A program made the translations under genes and the position numbers. The notes under the pieces are model-generated. The model did not search any database. It saw nothing but the letters and a program-made list of their open reading frames with translations, and was not told where the DNA came from. DNA of 25,274 bases from a virus: the UHGV virus genome UHGV-0164608; one strand, written 5' to 3'. Shown one piece after another: positions 12,419 to 14,765 of this stretch (position 1 is its first letter; every line of letters starts with the position of its first letter).

Positions 12419-12444
12419 AACCTATAGATCAGGGTCTATAGGTT
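12419..12444. terminator. Perfect 10-bp stem hairpin (aacctataga-tcaggg-tctataggtt) at the convergent junction of Q and the three-gene operon; possible bidirectional terminator
   Basis: Inverted repeat read directly from the sequence. The flanking T-runs are modest. Confidence 0.4.
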
Positions 12445-13069
12445 TATGATGTAATGATACAGGATAATGCACAACTTGATAATCCAGCTTACTTACAGTA
12501 TGAAGGTGCTGACTATAAAAAACCAAGGGGTTTTTTGGGCAATCAATAATATTAACGGATTTACAAGCATGAATCCTAGGTGCATTCTTTGATAAGAATG
12601 TTTTCCATGAATCCATCATGTCAGAACAGGAAGCGTTTTTCGTATAAATAATTAAACCACCCGAAGAGCTATTTATAGTCCCAGTACTATATCGCTCGGT
12701 AAGTTGTGCATAACCTTTAAAAAGATATAAATATGAAGAATGTTTTTTAGCTTCCCCATGCCAGATATAATCTGCAAGGGTAATAGATATATCACAATGT
12801 CCTCTCTGGTTCTTCTCGTGACTGGCTTCGAGCCCCAGATATCTATTTTCAACATACGAAAGCAAATATAGAGTTAACTGATCTTCAGAGAGATCAAAGT
12901 TAATTTTATTGCCATTTTGCTCTAATTTACTTACAGCGTAATCCAGCTCCTTTCGAACAAGACTGTTGAAATTAGAATAGGACTCCAACGCAAATTGAAT
13001 CCTTTGAATGGCAAAGTGAACCTTCTGCAAATGAAAGTTTTTCTCCAAATCATCCAAACTTGTAAGCAT
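12422..13069 (-). CDS. Hypothetical protein, third gene of AT-rich accessory operon; possible PD-(D/E)xK-like spacing
   Basis: 215 aa from ATG at 13069, which overlaps the upstream stop (TAATG). Contains ...RGHCDISITLADYIWHGEAKK..., a D-x13-E-x-K spacing. No family recognised. Confidence 0.6.
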   Translation of the reverse strand: MLTSLDDLEKNFHLQKVHFAIQRIQFALESYSNFNSLVRKELDYAVSKLEQNGNKINFDLSEDQLTLYLLSYVENRYLGLEASHEKNQRGHCDISITLADYIWHGEAKKHSSYLYLFKGYAQLTERYSTGTINSSSGGLIIYTKNASCSDMMDSWKTFLSKNAPRIHACKSVNIIDCPKNPLVFYSQHLHTVSKLDYQVVHYPVSLHHKPIDPDL

Positions 13070-13497
13070 TAGCACGCCCCTTCCTTTGTAAAATTAATAA
13101 CTGTAAAGAAAGGAAATACATATTTTTTGTAGTCTGGCACAATCTCACCAGTATATGGATGCTCTAAACCTTGATTATCTTCAGCATCAATCACGTCCGC
13201 AATGCTTATATTAACTGGATCGAAACCATCGTCTATAAATTGATAGTTTAATTTCAAAAAATTAACTTTTGGATTACACAAAACTTGGATAGCCAAGTAA
13301 ATATCATGCTCATCCACTTTAGCGCCCCCCTTATTCGAAATCGCTATATCAAATAAAAGGTTATAACTAATGAATATATTAGGAGAGCGAGCTGCTAACT
13401 TAGCAAGTTTTTCATAAAACATGCACGCCAACCCCCCCACTTCTGGGCGTTCTGAGCATATGTCTTGTATAGTCTTTGCCAAGTTAGCATCCTTCAT
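13069..13497 (-). CDS. Hypothetical protein, middle gene of accessory operon
   Basis: 142-aa product, ATG at 13497 with GGAGA upstream, 12 nt after the upstream gene's stop. No family recognised. Confidence 0.6.
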   Translation of the reverse strand: MKDANLAKTIQDICSERPEVGGLACMFYEKLAKLAARSPNIFISYNLLFDIAISNKGGAKVDEHDIYLAIQVLCNPKVNFLKLNYQFIDDGFDPVNISIADVIDAEDNQGLEHPYTGEIVPDYKKYVFPFFTVINFTKEGAC

Positions 13498-13509
13498 TTT
13501 TGTCTCCAG

Positions 13510-14616
13510 CTATAGTATCAGCTTCGTAAGCGTTTCGAAATCATCACGAGAGATACATTTACTAAGTATAGCAAAATTCACTGGTGAACCAGAGCTTCCA
13601 CCAAGGTACCGTCTTAGCGTTCCTGGTATAGTAAGTTCTACATTGTCCGCTAACTGTAGTAAAGGATTTGTTCGCTCAACCCTGATGCCTATCCTATAAA
13701 GTCCGATATTGCCTACGGCTTTAATACCTTCTTGATTGAAGATATCTTGTCTCAAATCTTTAGTGGAGTCAGTTTTCCTTTCCTTATGTGTCGTCCCTTC
13801 AGGGGTAAGGAATGAAAGCTCAAAAACTTTATAATTAAGAGTTGAGTATGGTTTTTGATCTTGCTTAAAGATTGGTTCAATCAAGGGAAAGAAATCTCTT
13901 TCTTTTGATGCAAACTCAGCACCTATAATATTATAAAGTTCTCTTACTACAGTACTCTTTGCAAACAAGACGCTCTCACCTATTGTGTTAATACCTGCAT
14001 CTATCAAAATTGAGATAGTAGAGTTGGTCTTATTAAAAATGCAGACATCAAAACATTGATGCTTTTCTTTTTTAGTAGCAATGATCTCTTCGTAGTCACT
14101 GTACTGCGGTAAACTTTTAGGCGAAATCCTCTCTCTAATTTTTTGCTCTCTAACGGAACTAAATAGAGCTAAAGCCTGATTATTGCTCTCAGAATAATGA
14201 ACTAAGTTTATTTTATTCTTCCCCGACGCATTAATTTCCTGCTCAGAAAGGATTACATCTGAGGCGACAGAAGGCTGTTCAGATAAATCCCACTTTAATT
14301 TCATAGCCTTTGTTAGCGAGGAAATTATTTGGTTGTCTATTGATAAACAAAAAAAAGCTTTATCACCGTAGACCAATTGACCAAATATTAAATTATTTAC
14401 AGACCTTATGATATCATTAAATTTATTTAAATTCTTTTCCTTTAATTCTGTTAATTCTTCCAGTATTTTTCCATGAGTAGCATCTCTACCTTTACCACGA
14501 GCTAATCCAAGAGCTGAAATAACAGGTTTTGCCACGTTCCATGGAAATCTCGTGATTAGTGTCAAAATTGATTTCATTTCTGCTTCACTAAGTACTACTG
14601 GGACATTTCCTGTCAT
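13510..14616 (-). CDS. Hypothetical protein, first gene of accessory operon; C-terminal GGSSGSPV motif reminiscent of serine-protease GxSGxP
   Basis: 368 aa from ATG at 14616 (the track ORF begins at a GTG at 14643). Fold not recognised; the protease resemblance is weak. Confidence 0.6.
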   Translation of the reverse strand: MTGNVPVVLSEAEMKSILTLITRFPWNVAKPVISALGLARGKGRDATHGKILEELTELKEKNLNKFNDIIRSVNNLIFGQLVYGDKAFFCLSIDNQIISSLTKAMKLKWDLSEQPSVASDVILSEQEINASGKNKINLVHYSESNNQALALFSSVREQKIRERISPKSLPQYSDYEEIIATKKEKHQCFDVCIFNKTNSTISILIDAGINTIGESVLFAKSTVVRELYNIIGAEFASKERDFFPLIEPIFKQDQKPYSTLNYKVFELSFLTPEGTTHKERKTDSTKDLRQDIFNQEGIKAVGNIGLYRIGIRVERTNPLLQLADNVELTIPGTLRRYLGGSSGSPVNFAILSKCISRDDFETLTKLIL

Positions 14617-14765
14617 CTTAATTACCTGTTGAAATTGCAACACAAGGTCGTCTTCGGGAGATCAATGGGAGTATTCCAATAACTTACCCAGGTATAGGAG
14701 TGCTTTCAAGTCTAAGACTATCTTCTGTCTAACAGCGCATGTTTTCATCTAAGCGCGCGCTCGTA

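Follow-up and report, generated by a model that had tools for sequence, protein, structure and literature searches.

What do three AT-rich, tightly packed genes next to the portal gene of a P2/186-like phage do? The question is raised by UHGV virus genome UHGV-0164608, of which the whole stretch of 25,274 nucleotides analysed here is called the window. The genes, all on the minus strand, are g1 (368 amino acids from its ATG, 13510-14616), g2 (142 amino acids, 13069-13497) and g3 (215 amino acids, 12422-13069), and are referred to together as the trio. Their products resemble, in this order, a probably DNA-binding protein of RdgC fold (the proposed sensor or DNA-engaging front end), an adaptor domain (the proposed tether or regulator joining g3 to a DNA-engaging partner), and a PD-(D/E)xK endonuclease with a BamHI-like fold (the proposed effector). 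I lean slightly towards reading the trio as a mobile three-component, nuclease-based defence module directed against phages or other mobile genetic elements. This function is deduced from the hotspot and mobile-element contexts of the trio, its inheritance as a unit, its AT bias, the presence of a PD-Lambda-1 match in the same phage, and a high DefensePredictor score for g2.

Three tightly packed minus-strand genes of these lengths, with a 12-nucleotide gap and a TAATG overlap, had been described in an earlier note on this DNA, and the open reading frames (ORFs) and junctions were found as described. The stop codon TAG of g1 is followed by the spacer CTGGAGACAAAA (13498-13509), which contains a GGAG Shine-Dalgarno sequence as ribosome-binding site, and then by the ATG of g2, while g2 and g3 share the stop-start overlap TAATG at 13067-13071. 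The ORF positions given for the operon were correct, but its upstream end at 14643 corresponds to an in-frame GTG upstream of g1, whose real start is placed at 14616 because all homologs begin at a conserved MTGNVP. Each of the three proteins falls in a PHROG family (function unknown), and homologs of each gene, down to 23-37% identity, occur in the same order in unrelated taxa; the trio therefore consists of real genes and not of chance ORFs. The tight junctions support the proposed co-expression of the three genes as one operon.

The trio was also said to be more AT-rich than the phage backbone, and the GC content of its genes is indeed about 0.36 (0.355-0.364) compared with 0.51-0.57 for Q, P and gpA. 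A candidate sigma-70 promoter of the trio lies at 14681-14709 on the minus strand (TTGAAA, 17 nucleotides, TAAGTT). In an alignment of upstream regions this element is kept as TTG[A/C]AA, 17-18 nucleotides and TAAnTT across otherwise divergent P2-like loci, and it is likely to be the operon promoter on the strength of this phylogenetic footprint only; a generic sigma-70 scan returned no more sites than in shuffles, and the 14681-14709 element was absent from its output. Further upstream, a GC-rich hairpin followed by a T-run (14823-14848, minus strand) is conserved in the same alignment and is likely to be the terminator of the upstream transcription unit on the gpA side, which would insulate the trio.

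Is g3 a nuclease? Across 27 aligned homologs, the most distant at 32% identity, the residues E62, D63, D93, E106 and K108 do not vary, nor do G90, W103, A107, H110, R126 and Y127, and the acidic...D...(D/E)-x-K signature is kept in P4- and plasmid-borne variants of g3. The motif in which the earlier note had recognised a possible PD-(D/E)xK core is the conserved core of the family because its residues are invariant, although its spacing is really D93-x12-E106-x-K108 and not D-x13-E-x-K. The predicted structure of g3, with a predicted local distance difference test (pLDDT) score of 91, has a restriction-endonuclease-like alpha/beta core and matches BamHI-family restriction endonucleases; CdiA-CT DNase toxins are also among its structural matches. 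By predicted fold and catalytic signature, g3 is a Mg-dependent PD-(D/E)xK endonuclease of the BamHI type for which metal-dependent DNA cleavage is predicted, with E62, D63, D93, E106 and K108 as candidate catalytic residues.

The absence of recognisable features that had been reported for g2 held in so far as g2 matches no family, but it turned out to be a portable domain. The protein evolves fast and keeps the motifs A-I-Q-V-L, F-I-D-D and L-x-H-P-x-T-G-E in its alignment. Homologs of g3 that seemingly stand alone were found in alphaproteobacteria, namely Sneathiella, a Rhizobiales bacterium, Roseivivax and Pararhizobium. Three of them are preceded, with overlapping stop and start codons, by a Type ISP restriction-modification enzyme of 1,763-1,779 amino acids that carries the domains Mrr_cat_2, ResIII, Helicase_C, ISP_coupler, N6_Mtase and Type_ISP_C. 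The Type_ISP_C domain ends at residue 1606 of 1779, and the final ~170 residues beyond it are homologous to g2: BLASTP of this tail (C-terminal ~125 amino acids) against free g2 proteins gave E-values of 5e-13 and 4e-10, and fused tails and free g2 proteins align collinearly with the same motifs. In Pararhizobium, the partner of g3 is a IIG-like helicase of 1,026 amino acids with a g2-like tail, adjoining a giant protein that combines DUF4011, helicase and restriction endonuclease (REase) parts. Each of these g2-tailed enzymes, Type ISP apart from the one IIG-like helicase, is followed by an overlapping g3-type gene (loci L003, 665-6621; L014, 4587-10510; L015, 4611-10543; L016, 6837-10552).

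Judged by these alignments, g2 is a domain that occurs either free or as the C-terminal tail of DNA-translocating restriction enzymes, and in both forms the start of g3 overlaps its end. Because the tails are homologous to g2 and a g3 gene follows them, g2 and g3 can be described as a two-part cassette; its front end is provided by g1, by a Type ISP enzyme or by a different helicase of restriction type. The g2 tail and g3 together seem to be a so far undescribed accessory arm of Type ISP systems; canonical Type ISP enzymes are not known to carry a g2-like tail and an extra nuclease.

For g1, an AlphaFold2 (AF2) model with a pLDDT of 86 returned only matches to RdgC and TBP-like/helix-grip folds, and the BFVD matches, which are its viral structural relatives, are annotated as RdgC or recombination-associated. 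According to this model, g1 has an RdgC fold, in the group that includes lambda RexA, together with an extra N-terminal four-helix domain. In Pfam, g1 had no hit at E<=1 and 93 diverse members of its superfamily had no domain, RdgC included, at E<=0.01, while the superfamily profile, when compared by hhalign with two proteins of RexA type, reached probabilities of 0.3% and 28%, which is no significant link. Since sequence profiles connect g1 with neither RdgC nor RexA, its DNA binding is deduced from the fold, and g1 is probably a DNA-binding protein. An exhaustive profile search yielded 427 cluster representatives (clusters at 50% identity), 224 of them at E<=1e-10, and nearly all are single-domain proteins of 340-380 amino acids. 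This makes g1 the most widely conserved component of the trio.

An entirely different role for g1 had been proposed from the string GGSSGSPV, which was likened to the GxSGxP active-site motif of trypsin-like serine proteases; the system would then act by proteolysis combined with a nuclease. The string was described as the end of g1, and it does lie near the C-terminus but occupies residues 339-346 of 368. All that speaks for a protease is GGSSGSP at residues 339-345 of this single g1 sequence. In close homologs the string reads GGSSCSPV, HGSAGTPI, GGSGCSPV, AGSSGDAV or SGGKTSPV, with Ala or Gly at the position of Ser342 and Cys, Ser, Thr or Lys at that of Gly343. The motif is missing from distant homologs, in which the equivalent stretch is MSGTTNPTV or GKTNGQIV. 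Invariant motifs lie elsewhere in the protein (QCFD, EKDFF, EGTTHxExK, DLRxDxFN and PGTLRR), and the double beta-barrel fold of the PA clan was not seen among the structural matches of the AF2 model. Motif variation and predicted fold refute the protease in silico, and I give it practically no credence.

Are the three genes inherited together? All 37 surveyed loci with g1, and every locus added afterwards, have g2 and g3 immediately behind it, the genes being separated by short gaps or overlapping. Between the Klebsiella phage and a Bradyrhizobium chromosome, g1 matched with an E-value of 3e-18, g2 with 2e-11 and g3 at ~37% identity, so that all three genes are homologous between the two. The recurrence at other prophage hotspots that the earlier note had raised was found in P4-like, lambdoid, Stx1a and further contexts. 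A P4-like satellite carries a distant trio of 366/204/218 amino acids (locus L050, 8001-10276) between psu and int, the published P4 defence hotspot; its g2 has additional N-terminal sequence, which makes it longer, and shares ~80 nucleotides with g3. Lambdoid Klebsiella prophages hold the trio between O/P/ParB-like genes and the NinR/antiterminator (nin) region, in one case beside a pyocin-immunity pair. In the Stx1a-converting phage Stx1_499 (LC567825.1; locus L056, 6857-8964), a distant trio of 350/130/221 amino acids lies between antiterminator Q and stx1AB on the opposite strand, and a distant trio of this type is present in seven deposited Stx1a phages.

Other carriers are a lambda-like phage, with the trio between terminase (terL)/Mor and portal beside HipA, an integrative and conjugative element (ICE)-like element that carries integrase, ArdC and TraI, and the Bradyrhizobium island, where an integrase and a SIR2_2 protein lie alongside. 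The smallest replicon is the mobilizable 6.1-kb Col-type Klebsiella plasmid pRGF99-1-6115bp (NZ_CP075557.1; locus L055, trio at 36-2186), on which rep, a RelE/ParE-NadS pair and mob accompany the trio. The trio fills about one third of this plasmid, and the PLSDB gene table does not list its g1. In all contexts the GC content of the trio is lower than that of its flanks: 0.34-0.39 against 0.47-0.61 in most loci, 0.27 against 0.36 in Ca. Schmidhempelia and 0.52 against 0.62 in Bradyrhizobium.

These carriers bear on the idea that the trio is a toxin-antitoxin or addiction module, in which g3 would be a DNase toxin, g2 its antitoxin and g1 an accessory regulator, so that the trio would stabilise its carrier element and defend only secondarily. 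On the Col plasmid it indeed sits beside another toxin-antitoxin pair, and ICEs, plasmids and prophages are generally its homes. Moreover, g2 is small, acidic (isoelectric point 4.7) and translationally coupled directly upstream of g3, which in turn counts the CdiA-CT toxins among its structural matches. A simple toxin-antitoxin pair, however, has no need of a g1 of 350-400 amino acids, which is always present and is the most widely conserved part, and g2, which is also found covalently attached to restriction enzymes as their tail, is more plausibly a docking domain than a labile antitoxin. Toxin-antitoxin-like architecture and defence can also coexist. An addiction module consequently appears unlikely as the primary identity of the trio.

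The position of the trio in P2-like phages was then considered. The upstream edge of the cargo slot, outside the system itself, is marked by a P2/186-type cos core, GGCGTGGCGGGGATACGAG (14760-14778, minus strand), so that the trio is framed by cos and the 3' end of the portal gene Q (11346-12386, plus strand). P2-like phages always carry it in this cos-Q slot, even when g1 identity has fallen to 51-63% and gpA identity to ~35%, and in each P2-like locus 150-250 bp separate g1 from the cos core upstream of it. The earlier note had put the trio where P2 carries old and tin, among variable anti-phage cargo. It does belong to the variable cargo between gpA and gpQ, but old and tin of P2 lie on the gpA side of cos and the trio is on the Q side. 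The gpA-gpQ locus of P2-like phages is a known defence hotspot (Rousset et al. 2022), and the cos core string of the window is also present in clone pFR109 of that study.

How the trio moves is recorded in lambdoid prophages. Upstream of several lambdoid copies (L047, ~9783-9870 and 12287-12645; also L023, L042 and L045) there is a decayed P2-type cos, GGCGTGGCGGAGATACGAA, together with the hairpin, and downstream a leftover piece of the P2 portal gene Q, which in L047 is frameshifted; the trio in between is intact. Because the flanks are decayed and the trio is intact, a segment running from cos through the trio to the 3' end of Q was transplanted from a P2-like phage, with only the trio remaining under selection. 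Among 5,426 complete E. coli genomes, ~27 carry one of two enterobacterial trio variants and 1,237 carry the adjacent cos segment, and this rarity marks the trio as optional cargo and not as a core phage function. Taken as a whole, the evidence supports the description of the trio as AT-rich cargo that was acquired horizontally and sits in the gpA-gpQ defence hotspot of P2. The other AT-rich slot of the same phage, located between the CI repressor and the integrase, holds a 558-amino-acid ORF (22112-23788, plus strand) that matches PD-Lambda-1, a defence system made up of one gene, in PADLOC with an E-value of 7e-120 and carries the Pfam domains DUF4041 and T5orf172/MUG113.

The fixed cos-Q position, kept even at 51-63% identity, would also suit a trio that serves its carrier phage in recombination, replication, lysogeny control, counter-defence or anti-satellite activity, and not host immunity. 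The structural relatives of g1 among viral proteins carry the annotation recombination-associated or RdgC, RdgC inhibits RecA, and RexA affects the lysis-lysogeny switch of lambda, which it biases; SOS-linked DinI/tum-type genes lie close to the trio. Set against this, a trio so rare and patchy in E. coli relative to the cos segment must be dispensable for P2-like phages, and several carriers (the Col plasmid, the ICE-like element and the chromosomal island) have no phage life cycle at all. The trio also occupies the P4 psu-int defence hotspot, and lambdoid carriers already encode RecE/RecT. In addition, g3 resembles restriction enzymes and not recombination nucleases of the lambda-Exo/RecB type, and the g2-g3 pair attaches to restriction enzymes. 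I regard service to the carrier phage as improbable on this evidence.

Is the trio a known defence system in disguise? That it matches none had been claimed before and was borne out by PADLOC-DB v2.0.0 (including Old, Tin, PD-T4/T7/Lambda, PDC and HEC candidates), in which g1-g3 had no match at E<=1 other than a chance-level Cas9. P4- and lambda-borne variants were likewise without a match in PADLOC, and a search with 93 + 27 superfamily members gave only scattered marginal matches of single members. Pfam-A and NCBIfam contained no meaningful match for single trio proteins or whole alignments, and profiles of all three families found no relative among Protein Data Bank (PDB) chain sequences. 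RefSeq, GenBank and UniRef label the trio proteins as hypothetical, save for a few spurious names. Some g1 and g3 cluster entries are called 'Metal-binding protein ZinT' or 'PTS sugar transporter subunit IIB'; no profile search supports either name, and both look like annotation errors.

Candidates from the literature were rejected as well. Identity with Rst_3HP, a three-gene system of the same hotspot, was dismissed at a best BLASTP E-value of 4.2 across all protein pairs, and none of the remaining P2/P4 systems that Rousset et al. cloned, as listed in their Tables S2A/B, corresponds to the trio. Six new P4 systems are named in a 2026 P2/P4 preprint; as far as descriptions can be compared, none has the trio architecture. 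The same preprint reports that six of eight randomly chosen uncharacterised P4-hotspot loci protected against phage. By accession and motif, a language-model preprint (10.1101/2025.01.08.631966) contained no match to the trio. In Table S10 of DefensePredictor, WP_032254893.1, which is g2, is listed as "Predicted novel defense gene" with a log-odds of 7.67, where the strict cutoff is 4; judged by accessions and motifs, g2 is not among the cloned units of that study. The trio is an unnamed family: the logic of a DNA binder plus a nuclease effector on a prophage is known, while its composition of RdgC-fold protein, adaptor and BamHI-like nuclease is new.

If the trio is a defence module, it might work as follows. 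g2 would dock the g3 nuclease on a DNA-engaging partner and perhaps restrain it there, and in the trio this partner would be g1 in place of a translocase. Upon infection, g1 would bind invading or replicating phage DNA at free ends or at replication or recombination intermediates, as proposed for RexA, and would via g2 position or release g3, which would then cut DNA. Either the phage genome would be destroyed directly or the infection would be abortive. Since the operon holds no methyltransferase, discrimination between self and non-self would rest on what g1 recognises and not on methylation.

Several points weigh against this defence reading. The anti-phage role is a prediction for every member of the family, and so are the contacts among g1, g2 and g3 and the direction of control (tether versus inhibitor). 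Presence in the hotspot is no more than a hint: partition systems and toxins were found there too by Rousset et al., and only three of their eight new P2 candidates scored. A prophage that cuts free-ended DNA must furthermore spare its own cos-ended genome, and no mechanism of sparing is evident.

A bolder version of the defence reading, which I offer as a tentative and rather doubtful idea, is that g2-g3 is a general 'plug-in nuclease' cassette, consisting of a docking domain and a BamHI-like cutter, that is mounted on varied DNA-tracking front ends. In the trio, an RdgC-type ring could thread only onto free DNA ends or specific replication and recombination structures, and DNA topology would provide a discrimination that is independent of methylation. 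If this were true, it would amount to a new sensing principle for a compact and widespread system and to a new accessory arm for Type ISP enzymes.

Should the trio prove protective, the defence catalogue would gain a system that is compact (2.2 kb), widespread and as yet without a name. Among clinically important Enterobacterales it is carried by P2-like phages, a P4-like satellite, lambdoid and Stx phages, ICE-like elements and small plasmids, and protection would matter for the host range of therapeutic phages in Klebsiella and E. coli. The RdgC/RexA fold would emerge as a recurrent sensor scaffold in phage exclusion, and a portable adaptor and nuclease cassette held in common with Type ISP enzymes would be direct evidence of mix-and-match evolution in defence. 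The remnant of cos, trio and Q in lambdoid prophages records hotspot cargo moving between phage families.

The remainder of the window is P2/186-like, with capsid and terminase genes, P (terminase, 9583-11349, plus strand), Q, gpA (replication protein, 16330-18744, minus strand), a DinI-like/tum-type pair, a CI repressor (21495-22091) and an integrase (23872-24924). The window matches GenBank OM835953.1 ("Klebsiella phage KP12 clone KP12_3") with 100% identity over the region. This partial sequence is filed under Vequintavirinae, yet its gene content is P2/186-like, and it is probably a prophage-derived contig that was co-assembled with the lytic phage. On the gpA side of cos, a 225-amino-acid ORF (14952-15629, minus strand) has a lipobox-like LTGC near its N-terminus, belongs to phrog_1353 and has no Pfam match; it is found in some related P2-like phages and missing from others, and is separate variable cargo. 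The DinI-like/tum-type pair (15744-16278, minus strand) consists of a DinI-like gene (Pfam DinI, E-value 1e-22) that overlaps an upstream ORF of 96 amino acids (phrog_698), and corresponds to the tum-type SOS operon of 186 that the earlier note had mentioned. In the lambdoid prophages (L045), a DinI gene is likewise present, ~1 kb downstream of the trio. A D12-class (Dam-like) N6-adenine methyltransferase (18741-19658, minus strand) overlaps the end of gpA within the replication operon and sits 5.7 kb from the trio.

Among known systems, the validated Rst_3HP ('hp + hp + hp', from E. coli E1114; Rousset et al. 2022) is a three-gene gpA-gpQ system active against P1, and like the trio it has three genes without Pfam domains in the same hotspot of P2-like phages. 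Its proteins measure 333/359/227 amino acids against 368/142/215 in the trio, and it lies on the gpA side of cos while the trio lies on the Q side, both sub-slots being inside the gpA-gpQ hotspot. KELShedu, a two-component defence (PMC12577705), pairs the double-stranded DNA binder KELA with the nuclease KELB, the same split between DNA binder and metal-dependent nuclease that is proposed for the trio, with DNA cleavage or abortive infection as the outcome. No sequence relation between the two was detected, a single marginal SduA_C match in 93 g1 homologs being at chance level, and KELShedu has two components whereas the trio has a third, the adaptor.

Lambda RexAB, an exclusion system, is likewise a prophage accessory operon with a large subunit in the RdgC/RexA/IML3/CHL4 fold group, and both may follow the proposed logic of a DNA-binding sensor that controls a separate effector. 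RexB, however, is a multi-pass membrane effector, whereas the trio has no transmembrane segment (maximum 19-residue Kyte-Doolittle values of 1.43 for g1, 0.90 for g2 and 0.52 for g3). E. coli RdgC, a ring-forming DNA binder linked to recombination, has the fold predicted for g1 at 9% identity, and the Pfam RdgC profile matches neither g1 nor its 93 relatives; RdgC is a stand-alone chromosomal housekeeping gene, and g1 belongs to a nuclease operon on mobile elements. Compared with the BamHI family (OkrAI, BamHI, BstYI and BglII), g3 has an identity of only 5-11%, no REase match in Pfam and an added N-terminal two-helix extension. Unlike type II restriction-modification systems, the trio operon contains only g1-g3 and no cognate methyltransferase. 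Finally, the g2-g3 cassette is common to the trio and to alphaproteobacterial Type ISP enzymes (LlaGI/LlaBIII type), but the trio lacks their translocase, methyltransferase and target-recognition domain and has g1 in their place.

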